Shown piece by piece: positions 1,302-46,145 of a DNA stretch of 64,000 bases; the stretch's first letter is position 1; every line of letters starts with the position of its first letter. Made by a program: the position numbers and the translations under genes. Source of the DNA: Candidatus Yanofskybacteria bacterium (lineage in GTDB: Bacteria > Patescibacteriota > Minisyncoccia > 2-02-FULL-40-12 > GWA2-44-9); assembly GCA_020852375.1 (NCBI GenBank), contig JADZAY010000009.1:12690-76689 (forward strand). The letters run 5' to 3'. The notes under the pieces are model-generated. The model saw nothing but the letters and a program-made list of their open reading frames with translations. It was not told where the DNA came from and did not search any database.

Positions 1302-2186
1302 TTATGACCCCTCGTGAGGCCACTGGCCTCGAGCGACCATGTTAATGGAAGTAATATGGGCATCAGAAGTGAGAATACTTACAATTGCCTTTCCAACTGC
1401 CGAAGGGGGTGTACAAAAAAGGTTTGTTTTTGAGTAGTCATAGCCAAAATTCTTACCCATCATTGAAACTGTATTCTGAACCACCCTTGAGTCATACATA
1501 CCAGTATCTACAATCCCTGGTCTTACATCTGTAATAAAAATTTTATCTTTATCGAGTTCAATCATTGCCGCGTTGGTAAAACGGCTGATTGAGCCTTTGG
1601 CGGCCATGTGCATACTTCCAGAAACAACAGAACGGATCGCGCTCATTGAGGAAACGATGCAAACTCGAGTTTCTTTTTGTTTACGGAATCGCGGAAGTAA
1701 CAAGCGCAATAAACTTACGGTGTTTTTTAAAACTGAAAGTTCTGCTTCGATTAATTCTTCAGATAAATCATCGATGAGCAAATACGGATTGTCGTCTTTG
1801 AGTTGAACCGTTCCCGCGCCCAATCCGACTGACTGAACCCAATACAGTGGCAGGTCGTTTGGAATTGATTCAACTAATTTTTCCAGAGCCGATATATTAC
1901 CCAAATCAACAGCAGAATATTCTACTTTTGCTCCAGAAATTTTTTCTTCTATCCATTTCTTAACAATCTGCAATTTGCTTTCAGTGCGAGCTACGATATG
2001 AACAATGGCACCAGCTTTGGCGCATTCAAACGCTGTGGCGGCACCAATATTTGCCTTGTATTCTTTTCCATCAATATCAACTAAAGTGTGCGACGGTTCG
2101 CCGGTCGTTATGTCTTTAAAAACAAAATCGACCGGTTTTATTCCAACTCCTGTTATGAGAATTCTTTTGTTGTTTAGATTATTCAT
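1302..2186 (-). CDS. short-chain dehydrogenase/reductase (SDR) family oxidoreductase, atypical
   Basis: Rossmann motif IGAATAFECAKAGAIVHIVAR and a PG..DT motif (RPGIVDTGM). The catalytic YxxxK appears replaced by HMAAK. The gene is markedly AT-rich relative to its surroundings. Confidence 0.65.
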   Translation of the reverse strand: MNNLNNKRILITGVGIKPVDFVFKDITTGEPSHTLVDIDGKEYKANIGAATAFECAKAGAIVHIVARTESKLQIVKKWIEEKISGAKVEYSAVDLGNISALEKLVESIPNDLPLYWVQSVGLGAGTVQLKDDNPYLLIDDLSEELIEAELSVLKNTVSLLRLLLPRFRKQKETRVCIVSSMSAIRSVVSGSMHMAAKGSISRFTNAAMIELDKDKIFITDVRPGIVDTGMYDSRVVQNTVSMMGKNFGYDYSKTNLFCTPPSAVGKAIVSILTSDAHITSINMVARGQWPHEGS

Positions 2187-2289
2187 AACCTGGTTCGAAT
2201 CCCTTCGGGGTTAACCTCATTTTATCAAAATTCTTTTTCAAAAAGTAGCGTAAAATAAGGATTTTCTACTTCTCATTTTTCAAAATTAC

Positions 2290-2377
2290 TGGCGGAGGGG
2301 GTGGGATTCGAACCCACGATCCCTTACGGGATGCCGCATTTCAAGTGCGGTGGAATAAACCACTATCCGACCCCTCC
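2290..2377 (-). tRNA. tRNA-Ser (anticodon TGA), long variable arm, CCA encoded
   Basis: Cloverleaf read by eye on the minus strand: acceptor GGAGGGG/CCCCTCC, anticodon loop cTTGAaa read as UGA, long variable arm, 3' CCA present. Confidence 0.8.
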
Positions 2378-2383
2378 ATTCGC

Positions 2384-2755
2384 CTACGCTATCCGCTTCC
2401 TCAGCCAGCTTCTCTCTAGATAGTGTTCTTCATAATGACAGTTCGGGCAGATCAATGCCAGATTTGCGAGATCATTATTACTCCTATCTCTGTCTTTATG
2501 ATGCACTTGCAAGATCTCTGGCTTGTCGTATCCGCACCGCTCACAAGTGCGCCCTCGTTCTCGCAAAAGCCGCATCTTCAGGGCCTTGAGCGCCGTCACC
2601 TTATCTCTTGGCCTATTCAGTTTATACCGTATACCAGCTCGCTGCTTGTTCGCGCATCTCTTGCTACAGGTCTTCTTGTTATCCCCAGACAGAATGGAAG
2701 CACCGCATACGGGGCAGAGGATCTCCTTCCTGCAAGATATGCCGTAGCAAGTCAT
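2384..2755 (-). CDS. HNH endonuclease (zinc-ribbon N-terminus)
   Basis: C-terminal HNH motif CERCGYDKPEILQVHHKDRDRSNNDLANLALICPNCH. The ORF-track extension to 3025 runs through tRNA-Ser(CGA) and is rejected. Start set at Met 2755, but a non-ATG start up to about 2830 (adding a CLVC..C Zn motif) is possible. Confidence 0.7.
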   Translation of the reverse strand: MTCYGISCRKEILCPVCGASILSGDNKKTCSKRCANKQRAGIRYKLNRPRDKVTALKALKMRLLRERGRTCERCGYDKPEILQVHHKDRDRSNNDLANLALICPNCHYEEHYLERSWLRKRIA

Positions 2756-2935
2756 ACTACAGAACGCTCGTCCGCCAGCTCTCTGCAACTCGACCGGGCG
2801 ACGGTATATCGGCGCAGCGCACACAAGGCAAGCAGTATTCGGCTTTCTTTGATATGGCTCGACCACCCATCCACTATACCATTTCGGAGGAGAATTGCCA
2901 AAAAACCAAATAATGATATACTTTTCTCCGCACAC

Positions 2936-3024: not shown

Positions 3025-3192
3025 AATGATCTTCGGAATGCCGTTTGGCATTGTGAAGATCATCCGCAAGAGATGTGGGGGATTCGAAGGGCGGACCGCT
3101 GCGACATCAGCTGATGTCGCCGGGAGCCCGTGCCCAGGCCGAGGCGAGCGACGGCGAGCCGAGAGCCGAGGGAGAATCCTCCCGCCTCCGCA
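3025..3192 (+). repeat. tRNA-3'-linked structured repeat (hairpin + GC-rich core + 19-bp copy of tRNA-Ser 3' end)
   Basis: Hairpin 3029-3062; core GGGGGATTCGAAGGGCGG..CGACATCAGCTGATGTCGCC..GGCCGAGGCGAGCGACGGCGAGCCGAGAG. GAATCCTCCCGCCTCCGCA at 3174-3192 is an exact copy of tRNA 3006-3024. Confidence 0.6.
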
Positions 3193-3210: not shown

Positions 3211-3402
3211 GTGGCGACATTGCTGTTGGACGACATGGACGACGACACGCGCCGCTTGCTCACCGAGCGAAGGCGGTACTCGTGCGGCCACTGCCAGAGC
3301 CGCTGGGAAACGCCTGCGTTCCAAAGCTCGACGGAGTGCCCGTCGTGCGGCGGACACTGGATCATCTTCGAGACCGTGCCGGACACTCAATGGGACCCGT
3401 AA
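3211..3402 (+). CDS. small zinc-ribbon protein (63 aa), hypothetical
   Basis: GTG start 4 nt after AGGAGG (3201-3206). CxxC..CxxC (CGHCQSRW...CPSCGGHW). Stop lies inside a strong terminator hairpin. Confidence 0.4.
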   Translation: MATLLLDDMDDDTRRLLTERRRYSCGHCQSRWETPAFQSSTECPSCGGHWIIFETVPDTQWDP

Positions 3403-4243: not shown

Positions 4244-5245
4244 TTAGGGGCGCTGACGGGAAAGAACGTGCGCGTGAATATCTTTGACGAACCCGTCGCC
4301 GTTGAAGCACATCGTGGGAGGGACACTGTATCGCGCCCACAGGTGGAGAAAATTGTTGTGCGCACACGCACAAAGGTAGTCGAACTCCCATGCGAGCATG
4401 ATCGCGGGATTGTACTGCCCGCTTTCGATGTCCATCCCGCGAGGAAACCAGCGGGGTATACGCCCGAGACGGACGTACACGAGACCGTCGTGATGGCGAA
4501 GCCCACCAACCACAGTTCCGGGAATGAACTCGTTCCAGTGCCTGCCGTTCACTTCGCAAGCCGCGTAGAACACGACCTTATTGCCGACGCGGAACCAGTC
4601 GTGCGGACGACGCGCCGGGAACACCGGCTTCTTCTCGGCCTGCGTACAGAGCGGTAGGAGCACCCGGATCTTCTGGTCAACGACACGCTTCGCTCCGACC
4701 GACCGCGCGCGAGCCGCCACGAGTCCGGAACGGATCTCGCCCATAAGCGCCCCGGACGCATTCGGGAGAAAACACCTCGAATCGAAGAGGTGCTCCTCGG
4801 GGCTGACGCCGGAGACCTTCTGAAATTCGCACGCTCCGCTGATAGTGTAGTTGAAGCGCTGGCGATCGCCGGTGGTATGCTCACACCAACCGCAGACATT
4901 GAAGGTGGTCGCCCCAGCAGACCGCGCCCGCGACAGGCCGTCCATCGGTTCGATGGGGCCGTCGTGCCCATTCTCCACATACCGCCCGCGGAGTGGGAAG
5001 TGGGGATCCACGAAGCGCCGCGCCAGAGCGCGGAAATCGCTCGCCGTCTTTCCGTGCAACGCCTTCAAGAGCTTGTCCGCCCGCTTGATATCCTCCGCAT
5101 GCTCCTTGGCGCGATGTCGCCAGAAGCGGACCATCTGACGGATGTTTGCCTGCCCGGTGAACAGGACGTCGTGCATGGTCAGACAGGGGAGACGCCAGTC
5201 GTCGGGAATAAGCGCCCGGACTTCGGCATTGGTAAGGTGCTCCAT
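4244..5245 (-). CDS. hypothetical protein (333 aa)
   Basis: Long ORF. AGGAGG 6 nt upstream of ATG at 5245 (MEHLTNAEV...). No family recognised. Confidence 0.6.
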   Translation of the reverse strand: MEHLTNAEVRALIPDDWRLPCLTMHDVLFTGQANIRQMVRFWRHRAKEHAEDIKRADKLLKALHGKTASDFRALARRFVDPHFPLRGRYVENGHDGPIEPMDGLSRARSAGATTFNVCGWCEHTTGDRQRFNYTISGACEFQKVSGVSPEEHLFDSRCFLPNASGALMGEIRSGLVAARARSVGAKRVVDQKIRVLLPLCTQAEKKPVFPARRPHDWFRVGNKVVFYAACEVNGRHWNEFIPGTVVGGLRHHDGLVYVRLGRIPRWFPRGMDIESGQYNPAIMLAWEFDYLCACAHNNFLHLWARYSVPPTMCFNGDGFVKDIHAHVLSRQRP

Positions 5246-5383
5246 GGGATCCTCCTGCGCGGTGCGCCCTATCACAGAGCGGAGATCCGCGCCGACCCTC
5301 GTGGCACGCATGATCGCATGCCGTCGCAACCTTACAAGTAGCCATTGTAGACGTCAACGCACCCGCCACTCGGGCGGGTGCGT

Positions 5384-5557
5384 GCTCTGTGGACCTACGG
5401 GGAGTCGGCCTCGCCTCTCGGCGCGCCGCCGCGCACCTCGGGCTGGCCACCGCCTCACGGTGCCGCCGACTGGCGGCACATCGCTCCGGCGTTCGTCTCC
5501 CCGTATATATTCGCTGTAGCAATACGGACAACCCTTGAGGGTTGTCCGTATTGCTCT
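5384..5557 (-). repeat. tRNA-3'-linked structured repeat (24-bp copy of tRNA-Ala 3' end + core + hairpin)
   Basis: GCTCTGTGGACCTACGGGGAGTCG at 5384-5407 duplicates 5553-5576. Minus-strand core ACGGGGAGACGAACGCCGGAGCGATGTGCCGCC..GAGGCGGTGGCCAGCCCGAGGTGCGCGGCGGCGCGCCGAGAGGCGAGGCC. Hairpin 5519-5554. Confidence 0.6.
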
Positions 5558-5558
5558 G

Positions 5559-5629
5559 TGGACCTACGGGGAGTCGAACCCCGACTTCATCCATGCCATG
5601 GATGCGTGATACCGCTTCACTATAGGCCC
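5559..5629 (-). tRNA. tRNA-Ala (anticodon GGC)
   Basis: G3:U70 in the acceptor (GGGCCTA/TAGGTCC). Anticodon loop atGGCat. Confidence 0.85.
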
Positions 5630-5753
5630 AAATGAGGACGGGTGGGATGCGGTCGGCATCACAGTCCGTCGGAACGACAGGCCTCTATGTAATCATATAG
5701 GCCCAAGGCGCCTGGAAAAATAGCACGAAAATGGTAGTATCGCAAGGTATTCC

Positions 5754-5839: not shown

Positions 5840-7273
5840 ATGGAGATCCATCCGAAGGTACGAGAGGTGCTCACAACTCTTGAGGAGCACAGCCATCGCG
5901 CGTATGCGGTGGGCGGTTGCGTGCGCGACATCATGATGGGGCGCACGCCGACCGACTGGGATATCACGACCAGCGCCACACCCGAACAGATCCAAGAGCT
6001 CTTCCCGGACAACTTCTACGACAACGCGTTCGGAACGGTCACCGTCAAAACCCGCGATGAGGATCCGCTCGTTCGCACGATCCAGATCACCCCATTCCGC
6101 ATCGAGGGGAAGTATAGCGATCAGCGCCACCCTGATGAGATCCGCTTCGCAAAAACGATCGAGGAAGACCTGTCGCGCCGCGACTTCACCGTGAACGCGA
6201 TGGCGCTGTCAGCAGACGGCACGCTTGTCGATCCGTATGACGGCCGCGCCGATCTTGCCGCCAAGGTCATCCGCGCGGTAGGGGATGCCGACGCTCGTAT
6301 CACCGAGGACGCACTCCGCATGATGCGCGCGGTACGCTTTGCAGCAACACTCGACTTCAGCATCCACGAAGCAACCCTCAAGGCCCTGACCCGTCACGCC
6401 GCGCTTCTGGAGCGCATCTCGGCGGAGCGGATACGCGATGAGCTCACGAAGATCATCAATTCGGCGCGGGCGATGGAGGGTATCCAACTCCTCGACGACA
6501 CCGGCCTTTTACGATTCATTATCCCCGAACTCCGCGAAGGGGTCGGCGTCGAGCAGAATCTCCACCACATCTACACTGTGTGGGAGCACAACCTGCGCAC
6601 CATGCACTATGCCGCCCAGAAGGGATACTCGTTCCCGGTCCGTATGGCGTGCCTCTTGCACGATGTCGGGAAGCCACGCACCAAGCGCGGACAAGGGCGC
6701 CACTGCACATTCTATGCCCACGATGCCGTGGGGGCGACCATGGCGAAAAAGATCATGGAACGTCTGCGCTACCCCGGGGAAGTCGTCGACGCCGTCGTAC
6801 GCCTGGTGCGCTACCACATGTTCTACTACAGCGTAGGGGAGGTTACCGAATCGTCCGTCCGCCGCCTTATCGCGAATGTCGGGCTCGAACACATCGACGA
6901 TCTCCTCCGCCTCCGCGAGGGCGACCGCATCGGCTCTGGGACTCCGAAGGCTGTGCCATACAAGCTTCGCCACCTAAAATACATGATCGACAAGGTCAGC
7001 CATGATCCGATCTCGGTAAAGATGCTCAAAGTGAACGGCGAGGACATTATGCAATCGCTGGGCATCCCTCCCGGTCCGAAGATTGGTCTCATCCTCAACA
7101 CGCTCCTGGCAGAGGCGCTCGATGATCCGAACATCAACACGCGCGAGCTCCTGCTCAAGCGCGCCGAGGGACTGAACACCTCCTCCGCGGCCGACCTCAA
7201 GAGCTCCCTCGAGCGGATCGAGCGGGCCCGCGACGCCGAAGAGAAGGAGCGTATGAAGAAGTACTACGTGTAG
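5840..7273 (+). CDS. cca: CCA-adding enzyme (tRNA nucleotidyltransferase, HD domain)
   Basis: GGCVRD..TPTDWDITT polymerase-beta head plus HD motif LLHDVGK; 477 aa. Most tRNAs in the window lack encoded CCA. Confidence 0.9.
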   Translation: MEIHPKVREVLTTLEEHSHRAYAVGGCVRDIMMGRTPTDWDITTSATPEQIQELFPDNFYDNAFGTVTVKTRDEDPLVRTIQITPFRIEGKYSDQRHPDEIRFAKTIEEDLSRRDFTVNAMALSADGTLVDPYDGRADLAAKVIRAVGDADARITEDALRMMRAVRFAATLDFSIHEATLKALTRHAALLERISAERIRDELTKIINSARAMEGIQLLDDTGLLRFIIPELREGVGVEQNLHHIYTVWEHNLRTMHYAAQKGYSFPVRMACLLHDVGKPRTKRGQGRHCTFYAHDAVGATMAKKIMERLRYPGEVVDAVVRLVRYHMFYYSVGEVTESSVRRLIANVGLEHIDDLLRLREGDRIGSGTPKAVPYKLRHLKYMIDKVSHDPISVKMLKVNGEDIMQSLGIPPGPKIGLILNTLLAEALDDPNINTRELLLKRAEGLNTSSAADLKSSLERIERARDAEEKERMKKYYV

Positions 7274-40424: not shown

Positions 40425-40555
40425 GGCCCGCTGTAGGGTTTGAAGCCCGGAGCGATGTGGCGGCAGCGGCCGACACCGCGAGGGCCGGAGCCCGGAGGCG
40501 GACGGCTCAGACCGGGGGCCGTTCGACCGGAGGGTGAATCCTACAGGGCGGACCA
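40425..40555 (+). repeat. tRNA-3'-linked structured repeat (core + 19-bp copy of tRNA-Lys 3' end)
   Basis: CTGTAGGGTTTGAAGCCCGGAGCGATGTGGCGGCAGC..GAGGGCCGGAGCCCGGAGG..GACCGGAGGGT, then GAATCCTACAGGGCGGACC 40536-40554, which equals 40357-40375. Followed by hairpin 40560-40590. Confidence 0.6.
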
Positions 40556-42238: not shown

Positions 42239-42322
42239 GCGCGGGTGGCGAAACTGGCAGACGCACTACCTTGAGGTGGTAGCGCCCGCAAGGGCATGGA
42301 GGTTCGAGTCCTCTCCCGCGCA
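42239..42322 (+). tRNA. tRNA-Leu (anticodon GAG), long variable arm
   Basis: Acceptor GCGCGGG/CCCGCGC. Anticodon loop ttGAGgt. Variable arm CGCCCGCAAGGGCAT. Confidence 0.85.
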
Positions 42323-42405
42323 CACTTGGCCACTCCTTATTCTGCATGTATGAAGGAAGTGGCTGGCCAAGTGTCCTGAGCGCATAGGCGCGAAGGACTA
42401 CAGTG
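42323..42405 (+). promoter_or_regulatory. conserved hairpin + -10 module (copy 1 of 3) upstream of tRNA-Val(GAC)
   Basis: CACTTGGCCACTCCTTATTCTGCATGTATGAAGGAAGTGGCTGGCCAAGTG hairpin, then TCCTGAGCGCATAGG..., then TACAGT 11 nt before the tRNA. Confidence 0.4.
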
Positions 42406-42478
42406 GTTGCGGTATGCGCGCTTAGCTCAGTTGGTAGAGCATCTCATTGACGTTGAGAGGGTCGTAGGTTCGAGTCCT
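42406..42478 (+). tRNA. tRNA-Val (anticodon GAC)
   Basis: Acceptor GCGCGCT/AGCGCGC. Anticodon loop ttGACgt. Confidence 0.85.
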
Positions 42479-42496: not shown

Positions 42497-42871
42497 TTAG
42501 TTTTTTAGTCTCTTCCCCCGATAGTGAGCCGCTTCGGCGAGGAATCGTTCGTCATCTTTTGTGCTATGCCTGACGGCGTGGCAATTCGCACAGAGAAGAG
42601 TGCATTTCAGGATCTCTGCCCGGATGCTCTCCCAGCTCTTGTTCGCGACATTACCGAGAGTGAAGTCTTTCTTTTGTGGATCAAGATGATGGAATTGAAG
42701 GGCGGCCTGATGGCCCCTCCAGCCACAATCCACGCACTTTCCGCCGAGGATGCGTATGGCAGCCGCCTTGGTTCGATAGCGCCGGATCTTGGTGTTGCAG
42801 GCCCCGCATCTGGCGCGCATTTTCCCCTGGTAATCGTTGTACTCTTTGCCGCATAGTTTACAGATCGTCAT
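42497..42871 (-). CDS. HNH endonuclease (free-standing, zinc-ribbon N-terminus)
   Basis: CKLCGKEY..CGAC N-terminus. HNH core CVDCGWRGHQAALQFHHLDP...LLCANCHAVRH. Paralogous in architecture to the HNH gene at 2384-2755. Confidence 0.75.
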   Translation of the reverse strand: MTICKLCGKEYNDYQGKMRARCGACNTKIRRYRTKAAAIRILGGKCVDCGWRGHQAALQFHHLDPQKKDFTLGNVANKSWESIRAEILKCTLLCANCHAVRHSTKDDERFLAEAAHYRGKRLKN

Positions 42872-42945: not shown

Positions 42946-43223
42946 GCCGCGGTAGCTCAGTGGTAGAGCGCAGCCCTAAATCTTTGGGGCTTTCCGCAGG
43001 AATGCGGATTGAGAAATCGGGTGAATTCGGGGGAACTCCGGAACGGTCTGGACAATCCCGAGCCGAGCTCCGTGGGGTATCCAAAACGGAGAAGGTGTAG
43101 AGACTAGCGGGTGAGCCCAACAATACTCCCGCACAAGCGCCCGACCTCCAGAACGGAGGATGATATAGTCCAATTCAGCTTCGGAAGAGGCTGGCGTCGG
43201 GGGTTCAATTCCCTCCCGCGGCA
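42946..43223 (+). tRNA. intron-containing tRNA, most likely tRNA-Phe (anticodon GAA); exons 42946-42977 and 43184-43223
   Basis: 5' exon GCCGCGGTAGCTCAGTGGTAGAGCGCAGCCCT and 3' exon GAAGAGGCTGGCGTCGGGGGTTCAATTCCCTCCCGCGGCA together give a 72-nt cloverleaf with anticodon loop ctGAAga. Identity rests on the splice-junction assignment, including an unusual G37. Confidence 0.7.
42978..43183 (+). ncRNA. group I self-splicing intron (Azoarcus-type) in tRNA anticodon loop
   Basis: 206 nt. Internal guide GGGGCT (42986-42991) pairs with exon end AGCCCU with a U.G pair at the splice site. P2 hairpin CCGCAGGAATGCGG. Core GAAGGTGTAGAGACTAGCGGGTGAGCCC closely resembles the Azoarcus tRNA-Ile intron P7 region, with ATATAGTCC as the P7 3' strand. 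The intron ends in G. Confidence 0.75.
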
Positions 43224-43224
43224 C

Positions 43225-43267
43225 AAAGTAAACTAAAACCGCCCCTCAGGGCGGTTTTAGTTTACTT
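43225..43267. terminator. perfect 20-bp hairpin after tRNA-Phe
   Basis: AAAGTAAACTAAAACCGCCC-ctca-GGGCGGTTTTAGTTTACTTT. Confidence 0.5.
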
Positions 43268-43411
43268 TCCTGCTCGCGGCCGGGAATTGAAGGGCATCGA
43301 GCCGAGCGAACTGCTTCGCTCGGTGAGAGCCCGGGCTCCGGGGGAGCATCGAAGCGTCCGCCGAAGGCGGCTGCGAAGATGCGGAGGAGGAGAATTCCCT
43401 CCCGCGGCACA
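43268..43411 (+). repeat. tRNA-3'-linked structured repeat, unit 1 of tandem pair (divergent core + 19-bp copy of tRNA-Phe 3' end)
   Basis: AATTCCCTCCCGCGGCACA at 43393-43411 equals tRNA 43207-43225. 5' flank GCGGCCGGGAATTGAAGGGC is roughly complementary to the T-arm. Followed by hairpin 43414-43449. Confidence 0.55.
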
Positions 43412-43452: not shown

Positions 43453-43588
43453 ACGTATCGTGGCGGGAGGGAATTGAACGCCGGAGCGATGCGGTATCAG
43501 CTGATATCGCCGCGAGGCGGTGGCCAGCCCGAGCGTCGCGACGGCGCCGCGAGAGGCGAGGCCAATGACTGACCCCTCCCGCGGCACC
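43453..43588 (+). repeat. tRNA-3'-linked structured repeat, unit 2 of tandem pair (canonical core)
   Basis: CGTGGCGGGAGGGAATTGAACGCCGGAGCGATGCGGTATCAGCTGATATCGCCGCGAGGCGGTGGCCAGCCCGAGCGTCGCGACGGCGCCGCGAGAGGCGAGGCC, then CCCTCCCGCGGCAC (a partial copy of the tRNA 3' end). Followed by hairpin 43595-43623. Confidence 0.6.
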
Positions 43589-45221: not shown

Positions 45222-45330
45222 TGGCGGAATTATTGTAACTCTCCGCGCCTGCCTGCCGGTAGGCAGGCCCATGCGCTCGGGGCACTTGGCCAGCCACCCC
45301 CTTCATACATGCAGGATAAGGAATGGCTAA
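45222..45330 (-). promoter_or_regulatory. conserved hairpin + TACAAT module (copy 2 of 3) upstream of the NUDIX gene
   Basis: Minus-strand reading: CACTTAGCCATTCCTTATCCTGCATGTATGAAGGGGGTGGCTGGCCAAGTG hairpin, then CCCCGAGCGCATGGG.., GCCTGCC-hairpin, then GAGAGT-TACAAT-AATTCC. ATG 40 nt downstream. Confidence 0.4.
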
Positions 45331-45332
45331 GT

Positions 45333-45455
45333 GTGGGCGGTAGAGGACTCGGCTTTGTCTCTCGCGTCGCCGTTGCGACGCTCGGATTAGCCACCGCCTC
45401 GCGGCGCCACCTACTGGCGGCGCATCGCTCCGGCGTTCGAGCCTCTACCATTCGC
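45333..45455 (-). repeat. tRNA-3'-linked structured repeat (core + 19-bp copy of tRNA-Val(TAC) 3' end)
   Basis: Minus-strand reading: GGTAGAGGCTCGAACGCCGGAGCGATGCGCCGCCAGTAGGTGGCGCCGCGAGGCGGTGGCTAATCCGAGCGTCGCAACGGCGACGCGAGAGACAAAGCCGAGTCCTCTACCGCCCACAC. The 19-bp copy at 45333-45351 equals 45502-45520. Hairpin 45457-45500 separates it from the tRNA. Confidence 0.6.
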
Positions 45456-45502: not shown

Positions 45503-45576
45503 TGGGCGGTAGAGGACTCGAACCCCTGACCCTCGCTGTGTAAAAGCGATGCTCTACCAACTGAGCTAACCGCCCG
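45503..45576 (-). tRNA. tRNA-Val (anticodon TAC)
   Basis: Acceptor GGGCGGT/ACCGCCC. Anticodon loop ttTACac. Confidence 0.85.
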
Positions 45577-45660
45577 GAATTATTGTAGCCCCGCGAACCC
45601 ATGTTCTCGGGACACTTCGCCAGCCAACTCCTTCATACATACAGAATAAGGAGTGGCGAA
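45577..45660 (-). promoter_or_regulatory. conserved hairpin + TACAAT module (copy 3 of 3) upstream of tRNA-Val(TAC)
   Basis: Minus-strand reading: CACTTCGCCACTCCTTATTCTGTATGTATGAAGGAGTTGGCTGGCGAAGTG hairpin, TCCCGAGAACATGGG.., then GGGGC-TACAAT-AATTCC directly abutting the tRNA 5' end. Confidence 0.45.
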
Positions 45661-45790
45661 GTGTGGGGGGAGCCTGGATTCACCCTCCGGTCAGGCCTGC
45701 GCCGTCGCTTGGCCTGCCTTCGGGCTCCGGCCCTCACGGTCGCGCCTGCTGGCGCGACATCGCTCCGGGCTTCGAATCCTATCACTCCAA
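45661..45790 (-). repeat. tRNA-3'-linked structured repeat (Lys-type core + diverged copy of tRNA-Ile 3' end)
   Basis: Minus-strand reading: GATAGGATTCGAAGCCCGGAGCGATGTCGCGCCAGCAGGCGCGACCGTGAGGGCCGGAGCCCGAAGG..GACCGGAGGGTGAATCCAGGCTCCCCCCACAC. Hairpin 45791-45836 separates it from tRNA-Ile. Confidence 0.55.
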
Positions 45791-45838
45791 CTACTACTTG
45801 AAACCGACCCGCCGCAGGGGCGGCTCGATTTCAAGATG

Positions 45839-45912
45839 TGGGGGAGCTAGGATTCGAACCTAGGACCACCAAGGTATAAGCTTGGCGCTCTAACCAGCTG
45901 AGCTACTCCCCC
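45839..45912 (-). tRNA. tRNA-Ile (anticodon TAT)
   Basis: Reverse complement folds as GGGGGAG-UA-GCUC..CCAAG-CUUAUAC-CUUGG..CUCCCCC-A. The loop CUUAUAC gives anticodon UAU, which is unusual. Confidence 0.7.
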
Positions 45913-46145
45913 TGAATCAATTGTAGTTTGTACGCTTTTCCCTGACGTTTGATCTGCTGCTCTCGCTTGGTTGCCGAACCGCGATCCGGATGTCGCTCAG
46001 TATACAGCAGGGTGAACGGGCCGCGCCCTCGGGTGTACTTTGCCCCCGTACCCGCTCGATGCTGTGCGATGCGCGCGGCGATGTCGGTCGTGATCCCGGT
46101 GTACAGCGTACCATCACCGCACTTCAGGATGTAGACGACGTACAT
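45903..46145 (-). CDS. GIY-YIG nuclease family protein (free-standing, 80 aa)
   Basis: MYVVYILKCGDGTLYTGITTDIAARIAQH...E (GIY-YIG core with Arg and Glu). The last 10 nt overlap the 5' end of tRNA-Ile. Confidence 0.7.
   Translation of the reverse strand: MYVVYILKCGDGTLYTGITTDIAARIAQHRAGTGAKYTRGRGPFTLLYTERHPDRGSATKREQQIKRQGKAYKLQLIQGE

Follow-up and report, generated by a model that had tools for sequence, protein, structure and literature searches.

Repeats and structured DNA at the tRNA-Ala(GGC) locus

We investigated a transfer RNA (tRNA) gene, tRNA-Ala(GGC), in a stretch of 64,000 nucleotides (nt) from a Candidatus Yanofskybacteria bacterium (GenBank assembly GCA_020852375.1, contig JADZAY010000009.1, positions 12,690 to 76,689 of the forward strand), here called the window. 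Behind the gene lies a small, structured, noncoding element enclosed by two copies of the gene's own 3' end, and the element belongs to a family that recurs behind tRNA genes in the window and across Patescibacteria, organisms with tiny genomes that are thought to be poor in mobile DNA. The parts of the locus, in the order in which they are read from the tRNA gene, are as follows.

5558-5629, minus strand: tRNA-Ala(GGC), the intact target gene (ARAGORN; Rfam tRNA, 60.7 bits)
5552-5576, minus strand: X(1), proximal copy of a 25-nt repeat (direct-repeat search)
5518-5555, minus strand: P0, perfect 18-bp hairpin directly 3' of the tRNA (inverted-repeat search and fold)
5494-5505, minus strand: X', arm complementary to the T-loop and the T-stem 3' strand (inverted-repeat search)
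5408-5493, minus strand: conserved GC-rich core, a three-way junction with a P2 arm (conserved internal loops) and a P3 arm
5383-5407, minus strand: X(2), distal copy of the 25-nt repeat, abutting the 3' end of the core
5357-5383, minus strand: terminator-like hairpin with 11-bp arms, after X(2) (inverted-repeat search)

The repeat, TGCTCTGTGGACCTACGGGGAGTCG, is an exact 25-nt direct repeat (100% identity), one base longer than had been noted in an earlier, sequence-only reading of the locus. It consists of the last 19 nt of tRNA-Ala as drawn by ARAGORN, from the T-loop on, and 6 to 7 nt past the gene end. In tRNA sense it reads CGACTCCCCGTAGGTCCA followed by CAGAGCA, and it contains the 3' half of the T-loop, the 3' strands of the T-stem and the acceptor stem, the discriminator, and a few trailer bases. 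The hairpin that the same reading had placed between the two copies is exact, with arms at 5518-5535 and 5538-5555, and shares its opening 4 nt with the end of X(1). A longer, 19-nt version of X' (5487-5505) is 89% complementary to tRNA-Ala at 5565-5583, and X' and X(2) pair as a closing helix, P1, in the minimum-free-energy fold of this copy. That fold has an energy of −105.7 kcal/mol (z = −8.95) on the tRNA-sense strand and of −96.6 kcal/mol (z = −6.8) on the antisense strand. The hairpin after X(2) is probably the original tRNA-Ala trailer.

Seven copies of one family behind window tRNA genes

Inspection of the 260 nt 3' of each window tRNA, and of the region behind a tRNA that contains an intron, revealed seven family copies behind 6 of the 16 window tRNA genes. 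The hosts are tRNA-Ser(CGA), tRNA-Ala(GGC), tRNA-Lys(CTT), tRNA-Val(TAC), tRNA-Ile(TAT), and the intron-containing tRNA, which is followed by two copies in tandem. Besides the tRNA-Ala copy, the window holds the following.

3071-3189, plus strand: family copy after tRNA-Ser(CGA), with a 19-nt repeat of the tRNA 3' end (covariance model, 110.3 bits)
40427-40551, plus strand: family copy after tRNA-Lys(CTT) (covariance model, 49.1 bits)
43270-43411, plus strand: divergent copy A, first of the tandem pair after the intron-containing tRNA (sequence reading and alignment)
43461-43579, plus strand: copy B, second of the tandem pair, with a decayed tRNA 3'-end repeat (covariance model, 112.8 bits)
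45335-45453, minus strand: family copy after tRNA-Val(TAC) (covariance model, 108.4 bits)
45666-45788, minus strand: family copy after tRNA-Ile(TAT), with a partly decayed 3'-end repeat (covariance model, 67.7 bits)

All share one layout, which in tRNA sense runs tRNA, P0, X', conserved core, X; X' is an imperfect reverse complement of the 3' part of the copy's own tRNA, and X is a direct copy of the 3' end of that same tRNA from the T-loop on. The family core that the sequence-only reading had recognized was borne out by two measures. Its motif, CCGGAGCGATG-N6-CAG-N9-CCGYGAGG, occurs 5 times in the window (0.00 expected), and a covariance model (R1) built from 44 copies detected six window copies at E-values of 1e-13 to 2e-34, including the tRNA-Ala copy (5391-5509, 112.7 bits). 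The seventh, divergent copy A was missed by that model and was recognized by eye and by alignment.

The distal repeats are exact in the Ala, Ser, Lys, and Val copies and in copy A, and they are decayed in the Ile copy, in copy B, and at the comparison locus L042, a range that is as expected for a distal duplicate drifting neutrally after insertion. The tandem pair shows both states side by side, with an exact inner repeat (19 nt, 43207-43225 and 43393-43411) and a decayed outer one. Copies A and B belong to different subfamilies, and both of their arms match the unusual T-loop (TTCAATT) of the intron-containing tRNA.

Three of the host loci have features of their own. The intron-containing tRNA gene (42948-43227, plus strand), which is followed by the two tandem elements, has its anticodon loop split by a group I intron (Rfam Intron_gpI, 42968-43193, 72.2 bits) and is not called by ARAGORN. 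The tRNA-Ile gene (45838-45912, minus strand) has the anticodon TAT, which is uncommon in bacteria, and the same gene with its element is also found at locus L035. Finally, at tRNA-Ser(CGA), the element's distal repeat is followed within a few bases by the start of a conserved 63-amino-acid (aa) open reading frame (ORF) with a good ribosome-binding site (3211-3402, plus strand). Its counterpart at locus L119 (4738-4929) is assigned to DUF7129, and read-through from tRNA-Ser(CGA) and the element could drive the ORF.

Distribution of the family and geometry of its repeats

GTDB species-representative genomes were scanned with the 22-base core motif, which yielded at least 118 matching loci (119 motif occurrences). 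Among the matches listed, nearly all are from Patescibacteria, with Kaiserbacteria, Paceibacterota, Yanofskybacteria, Uhrbacteria, Nomurabacteria, Moranbacteria, Falkowbacteria, "Saccharibacteria," and other lineages represented; those outside the Patescibacteria are two Elusimicrobia and a few third-party-annotated metagenome-assembled genomes (MAGs) labeled Gammaproteobacteria. In the same set of matches, a tRNA lies within 150 nt upstream of 80 of the 119 motif occurrences, always on the motif's own strand and never on the other, and the upstream tRNAs cover 19 amino acid identities. At locus L063 the upstream gene is a transfer-messenger RNA (tmRNA; Rfam, 134 bits), and by inspection L062 and L106 also seem to have tmRNA 3' ends. 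The same layout is also found at sites that are not tRNA genes, namely, L002 (33-nt repeat), L088, and L010/L015, the last being one copy common to two Kaiserbacteria species. The family is multicopy, spread across Patescibacteria, and located behind tRNA or tmRNA genes and occasionally elsewhere, in one orientation.

Elements of the family measure about 110 to 150 nt, the tRNA-Ala insertion being ∼145 nt. Among the 53 elements whose direct repeat is exact over 12 nt or more, repeat lengths run from 12 to 57 nt, and the distal copy starts 36 to 62 nt after the motif, right behind the core. Where there is an upstream tRNA, the proximal copy starts 17 to 21 nt before the tRNA end, which is T-loop position 56/57. 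The junction between core and T-loop is sharp at about 50 loci. The outer edge of the repeat is variable, lying anywhere from the tRNA end to 57 nt past it, and in some loci the whole native terminator is inside the repeat (54 nt in L036, 55 nt in L040 and L056, 66 nt in L092). Overall, duplication lengths range from 8 to 66 nt. These regularities refute a chance repeat or a local slippage duplication as the origin of the 3' repeat; nothing speaks for either there, and the architecture recurs at ∼50 independent tRNA loci around a motif for which 0.00 occurrences were expected.

We found no sign of a large integrated element that the repeats might once have bounded; the 3' copies bracket a single small member of a family that is both genome-wide and phylum-wide. 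A related proposal is that the repeats are the attL and attR scars of a tyrosine-integrase island that once sat at the T-loop and has since been lost or reduced. Integrase attachment sites in tRNA genes have an identity block that runs from the T-loop through the 3' end of the gene and beyond, and the repeats described here have just that extent and are also found at a tmRNA. Nevertheless, this explanation is very doubtful and has been largely refuted by the remaining data. The gap between the two 25-nt copies is just 144 nt and holds neither an integrase nor island remnants, and a single protein-read attachment site is implausible when the same core stands behind 19 tRNA identities. In addition, the duplications are as short as 8 nt, there are non-tRNA targets, and no copy has a distant partner repeat. 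Collections of viral contigs (IMG/VR), phages (GenBank), and plasmids (PLSDB) gave nothing except two spurious GC-rich matches.

The sharp junction also invites comparison with IS200/IS605-type elements. In that explanation, the family would be a derivative of such an element or an omega-RNA-like guide, with the core as the right-end scaffold, the tRNA 3' end as the guide, and the T-loop GTTC (or CCACAA at the tRNA end) as the short target motif that precedes the insertion. Several features fit: the junction falls immediately 3' of a short, universally conserved motif, a scaffold of ∼95 nt passes directly into flank-derived sequence, and hairpins lie near both ends. Locus L031 (∼2040-2400, plus strand) fits as well. 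There, the 5' two-thirds of a tRNA-Ser(GGA) are followed by a 31-nt spacer, X', the core, and the tRNA 3' part GACCCCCACCCCCTCCGCCA, so that the element sits within the T-loop with no proximal duplicate or intact tRNA copy, as peel-and-paste insertion would give, and ARAGORN calls no tRNA. L031 could represent a pseudogene, a state resembling an intron, or a primary insertion product. Elements of the IS200/IS605 type leave their target unduplicated, however, and most copies of the family have a duplication, of up to 66 nt and with native terminators included, L031 being the one exception. Together with the absence of a TnpA or TnpB gene within 2 kb of any of the 118 loci, and of any IS605-related match in Rfam, this leaves an IS200/IS605 or omega-RNA origin improbable.

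More generally, Rfam 15 contained no match to the element in the window or at ten other loci, whether at the gathering score, E ≤ 10, or E ≤ 1, and returned tRNA and tmRNA genes only. A conserved 5' leader motif was sought and was present in only 3 of the 118 copies. We found no description of the family in the collection of open-access papers that was searched.

Presence and absence of the element among relatives

Exact look-ups of window proteins gave no near-identical strain on record. Loci related to the window were found through the neighboring CCA-adding enzyme, with 90% protein identity for L119 and 76% identity for L121 and L122. The expectation that relatives would be polymorphic at this locus was confirmed. 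The element is present behind tRNA-Ala(GGC) in the window, L121, and L122 and absent in L119 and L120, where tRNA-Ala(GGC) has a different gene sequence with a terminator directly behind it. Conversely, L119 carries the element behind tRNA-Ser(CGA), tRNA-Ser(TGA), and tRNA-Pro(CGG), of which only tRNA-Ser(CGA) has one in the window.

A scan of metagenomes with a 55-nt pattern taken from the window tRNA-Ala gene added loci L124 to L129. Four of these (L124 to L127) have a tRNA-Ala that equals that of the window over the pattern and the 3' end that follows it, and in all four the element is absent. Empty L127 and filled L128 share the same tRNA-Ala and are ∼93% identical over the downstream flank. 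L128 contains an insertion of ∼136 nt immediately after ..GGTCCACAAAA, with CCACAAAA on either side, an 8-nt target duplication. Reverse-complemented, its P0 right arm and X' together match the target octamer and the P0 left arm exactly, and the two stretches form a perfect palindrome of 22 bp. At L129 (∼1990-2040, plus strand), a tRNA-Ala equal to that of the window over the same pattern and 3' end is followed by a hairpin of X', loop, and X without a core. Its parts are a copy of the T-loop in inverted orientation, a short loop, and the tRNA segment from T-loop to gene end, copied in direct orientation with a single mismatch (CCCCGCAGGTCCACAAAA), and it is either a deletion remnant or the type of hairpin into which the core inserts.

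The relatives also differ in the tRNA genes themselves. Same-anticodon tRNAs of clearly different sequence occupy orthologous positions, with two types each of tRNA-Ala(GGC) and tRNA-Ser(TGA), and tRNA-Pro(CGG) is inverted between the window and L119/L120. The genes compared are as follows.

tRNA-Ala(GGC): window 5558-5629, L119 5716-5791, L120 5779-5852
tRNA-Ser(TGA): window 2290-2377, L119 4297-4386

It appears that tRNA genes have been swapped as units and that the presence of the element changes along with them each time.

Conserved secondary structure of the element

Consensus folding of 44 copies with RNAalifold gave a three-way junction of P1 (X' with X), P2, and P3. P2 is long and has invariant internal-loop nucleotides (CC GGA GCG AU, then a stem with the loop AGYA, then CGC GAG GCGG), whereas the P3 arm varies in length between copies. 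In the consensus structure, 95.1% of cells are paired (78.6% in shuffles), and the covariation score is 0.481, compared with 0.166 for shuffled alignments, 0 of 500 of which reached 0.481, and with 0.075 to 0.104 when pairing partners were slid by 1 to 3 columns. Both sides changed in 20 pairs. The core helices contain about 30 G-U/U-G pairs and 8 A-C/C-A pairs, and this excess favors a fold on the tRNA-sense strand; helix P1 shows no such strand bias (40 versus 45). We also considered whether the loops of P0 (CTGC) and P2 (AGCA or AGTA) might form a kissing interaction, and discarded the idea because they showed no covariation.

The X' arm is specific for its own target. Mean duplex energies are −16.2 kcal/mol for X' with its own X and −10.5 kcal/mol when the X is taken from another locus (P = 1.7e-13). 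In 93 of the 118 copies, P0 is a perfect hairpin of 7 bp or more, and CTGC is its loop in 34 of these. By inspection, many copies also have a complement of the acceptor 3' strand 5' of P0 and a complement of the T-stem 3' of P0. Such transcripts would fold like a tRNA in which P0 stands where the D and anticodon arms would be and the core takes the position of the T-loop. Acceptor-stem-like pairing was seen by inspection in L004, L012, L016, L023, L025, L040, and L106; a crude test scored it in 11 of 47 loci compared with 29 of 462 controls, and this test misregisters tRNA ends and undercounts.

A rival explanation is that the element is a functional, tRNA-like noncoding RNA that shares its transcript with the tRNA and is released by tRNA-processing enzymes (RNase P, RNase Z, and the CCA-adding enzyme). 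The duplicated tRNA end and its complementary arm would then be an acceptor/T-stem mimic that closes the fold, and the spread of the element would reflect selection. Such an RNA would account for the strict sense orientation directly behind tRNAs, the strong covariation, the conservation of invariant unpaired nucleotides across phyla, and the G-U excess on the sense strand of the core. It would also account for the placement of the acceptor complement, P0, and the T-stem complement for a tRNA-like fold in many copies, and for a distal repeat that tracks acceptor-stem changes in tRNA-Ser(CGA). Against it, the tRNA-Ala copy in the window has no complement to the acceptor strand, P0 often resembles an intrinsic terminator standing between the tRNA and the element, and P1 lacks the G-U bias. 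Distal repeats have decayed in some copies, close relatives and loci with the same tRNA-Ala differ in whether they carry the element, and there are insertions at non-tRNA sites. On balance we consider a purely functional RNA unlikely, with the proviso that such a role is compatible with mobility and does not exclude it.

A second, independent insertion at the tRNA-Ala 5' end

The sequence-only reading had also described a duplication of the tRNA 5' end. An exact 11-mer, TATAGGCCCAA, is indeed present twice, at 5621-5631 and 5696-5706, so that the duplication itself is real and only the coordinates and length first given for it were slightly off. Taken alone, this repeat is marginal. Repeats of at least 11 nt within 200 nt are found at 0.6% of random window positions, and among the 16 window tRNAs only tRNA-Ala has a 5' repeat of this kind. 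Chance, for which the 11-nt repeat barely exceeding expectation is all that can be said, is nevertheless rejected here too, because alignment with four relatives shows an insertion between the copies. In L119, L120, L121, and L122, the tRNA 5' end passes into a conserved spacer, GGCG..GAAAAATAGCA, without interruption, and relative to all four the window has 75 extra bases, comprising 64 unique nt and the second TATAGGCCCAA.

5632-5695, minus strand: 64-nt lineage-specific insertion upstream of tRNA-Ala (alignment with four relatives)

Neither the window nor the comparison loci searched with it contain a second copy of the 64-mer. Within it, GGCCTCTATG (5680-5689) repeats the tRNA 5' end in inverted orientation and is paired in the fold with the orphan repeat. 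The insertion has the X, X', cargo, X layout of the main element in unrelated sequence. From these alignments, the 5' repeat is best described as the mark of a second, independent, lineage-specific insertion with an 11-nt duplication, beyond chance. The idea that the 5' and 3' duplications are linked events is not supported, as they are unrelated in sequence. What had been proposed as repeated insertion, excision, or recombination can be retained in part: there are insertions at both ends of the tRNA and no sign of excision.

A probable target-duplicating element at tRNA 3' ends

The best reading of the 25-nt repeat is that it is the target that was duplicated when a noncoding element of ∼145 nt entered the T-loop of tRNA-Ala(GGC). 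Duplication of everything from the T-loop to the gene end has left the tRNA intact, with the displaced copy lying behind the core. For the family as a whole, we favor a nonautonomous, target-duplicating mobile element aimed at tRNA 3' ends as the probable explanation. In its favor are the copy number and spread of the family, its one-sided position behind tRNAs, the geometry of the repeats at tRNA and non-tRNA sites, the covarying structure, the target-specific X' arm, the tandem pair with arms for one T-loop, the differences among relatives, the L127/L128 pair, and the mixture of exact and decayed distal repeats. Because the element carries no gene, it must be moved in trans.

Several observations weigh against this explanation. 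The duplications range from 8 to 66 nt, unlike those of ordinary transposases, which have a fixed length. The same-strand position, the conserved unpaired core nucleotides, and the tRNA-like layout fit a cotranscribed functional RNA equally well or better. The only clean pair of empty and filled sites, L127 and L128, represents a subfamily that joins at the tRNA 3' end and not the T-loop subfamily of the window. At tRNA-Ser(CGA), the distal repeat followed a compensatory acceptor-stem change in the window, L119, and L120, which needs gene conversion, reinsertion, or selection. None of the 118 loci contains an autonomous copy with a distant repeat partner. Lastly, clustering of the ORFs within 2 kb of the 118 copies revealed no recurrent protein family, apart from spurious frames across the element. 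With no autonomous copy and no recurrent neighboring gene, we cannot name a transposase, a reverse transcriptase, or an integrase.

A mobile element of this kind would most likely insert by the following steps. The T-loop would be nicked at position 56/57, directed by sequence or structure, and a second, staggered nick would fall at a variable distance downstream. Fill-in would then duplicate the interval between the nicks. The intermediate may be single stranded, either RNA or single-stranded DNA, and the X' arm would be either a guide to the target or a fold-back copy made from the target at insertion.

More tentatively, the family may represent a new nucleic-acid-guided or target-templated element, a possibility we rate below that of a mobile element in general. 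Its 5' arm would pair with the T-arm and direct the 56/57 nick, and a tRNA-like RNA that borrows the acceptor and T-stem of the host tRNA, and could thus be processed by RNase P, RNase Z, and the CCA-adding enzyme, would be the transposition intermediate, with L031 as the primary product or a T-loop intron. We place the family among small nonautonomous insertion elements, with a real chance that its way of picking a target is new.

Under any of these explanations, over one-third of the tRNA genes in this 64-kb window are followed by a single structured element, which recurs across many lineages of Patescibacteria. If it is mobile, the combination of a target-specific arm and a sharp T-loop junction points to a mode of target choice and cutting used by no cataloged bacterial element; if it is a working RNA, then a widespread tRNA-linked RNA is missing from Rfam. 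In either case, such loci will be misread by tRNA annotation, by island finders that use duplicated tRNA 3' ends, and by repeat analysis of MAGs.

Neighboring genes and other repeats

The interval between tRNA-Ser(CGA) and tRNA-Ala, which contains a LOG gene and an ORF of 333 aa, had been suggested to be a variably present cassette. This was correct for the 333-aa ORF (4244-5245), which is absent from L119, L120, and L121, and incorrect for the LOG gene (Pfam Lysine_decarbox), which is kept at this position in all three. The 333-aa ORF has no Pfam or PHROG match and only 6 homologues. We considered it as a mobilizing enzyme and rejected it, as it is an orphan and both tRNA and element are missing from the single homologue locus examined.

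Three small nuclease genes, two HNH and one GIY-YIG (Pfam, PHROG), adjoin window tRNA genes.

2384-2902, minus strand: small nuclease gene, the first of the HNH genes
42497-42871, minus strand: small nuclease gene
45903-46145, minus strand: small nuclease gene

The two tRNA-Ser genes of L119 are only ∼70 nt apart, so that the window lineage has gained the first HNH gene by insertion. We regard the HNH and GIY-YIG proteins as candidates for the enzyme that nicks DNA for the elements.

A second small repeat family, of ∼75 to 95 nt, has the form ACTTGGCCACTCC..hairpin..GGCCAAGTGTCCTGAGCGCAT..GCGAAGG and immediately follows either the 3' end of a tRNA or the main element's distal repeat. It too is polymorphic, being present behind tRNA-Arg(CCT) in L119 and absent at the orthologous window site (5827).

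42316-42412, window: second repeat family
45267-45351, window: second repeat family
45574-45670, window: second repeat family
5916-5990, L119: second repeat family

Downstream of tRNA-Ser(TGA), the window has a stretch (∼1000-2400) with a GC content of ∼40%, compared with 57 to 63% on either side, that holds a short-chain dehydrogenase gene (1302-2186). L119 has at this place a different tRNA-Ser(TGA), a family element, and then directly an OmdA-domain gene. The window also has GGGATTCGAACC, a fragment resembling a T-arm, at ∼100 nt downstream of tRNA-Ser(TGA). The low-GC stretch looks like foreign DNA gained beside a replaced tRNA gene.

Comparison with known systems

The element resembles the islands and prophages that tyrosine integrases place at tRNA and tmRNA genes, which likewise leave a repeat from the T-loop past the 3' end, keep the tRNA intact, and use tmRNA. 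The element differs from them in having no integrase or cargo, in its structured core and internal inverted copy of the target, and in its range of 19 tRNA identities and of non-tRNA sites with repeats of 8 to 66 nt. MITEs (miniature inverted-repeat transposable elements) and the Correia, RPE, ERIC, and REP/BIME repeats share with it a small size, noncoding and strongly folding sequence, multiple copies, target duplications, and a patchy distribution. Unlike those, it has an arm for each target in place of family-wide terminal inverted repeats, a strict site and orientation, a variable duplication length, and no parent insertion sequence among the 118 loci.

In CTX-phi and other Xer-exploiting elements, and in integron attC sites, as in the present element, an inverted copy of the attachment site lies ∼90 nt from the hybrid site, a single strand folds into a mimic of the target duplex (as X' and X do in P1), and structure is conserved over stem sequence. 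Those systems act at dif or attI, whereas the target here is the T-loop or 3' end of a tRNA or tmRNA, and the element is tiny and has no linked recombinase. Target-primed retroposons (R2, LINE/SINE, and eukaryotic elements that target tRNA genes) have in common with it a precise 3' junction, variable duplications, an enzyme supplied in trans to nonautonomous copies, and cotranscription with a host gene. The element differs in its bacterial host, in the inverted copy of the target, and in having no identified reverse transcriptase and no 3' tail.

Finally, tRNA-like RNAs (tmRNA, viral tRNA-like structures, mascRNA, and plant tRNA-snoRNA dicistrons) are comparable in the position directly behind a tRNA and in the acceptor-like stem and T-stem predicted for many copies, which would end in the cognate discriminator and, in some, in CCA. 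The element departs from them in its lack of an Rfam family, in the missing acceptor pairing of the window tRNA-Ala copy, and in carrying a 95-nt three-way junction in place of the T-loop.

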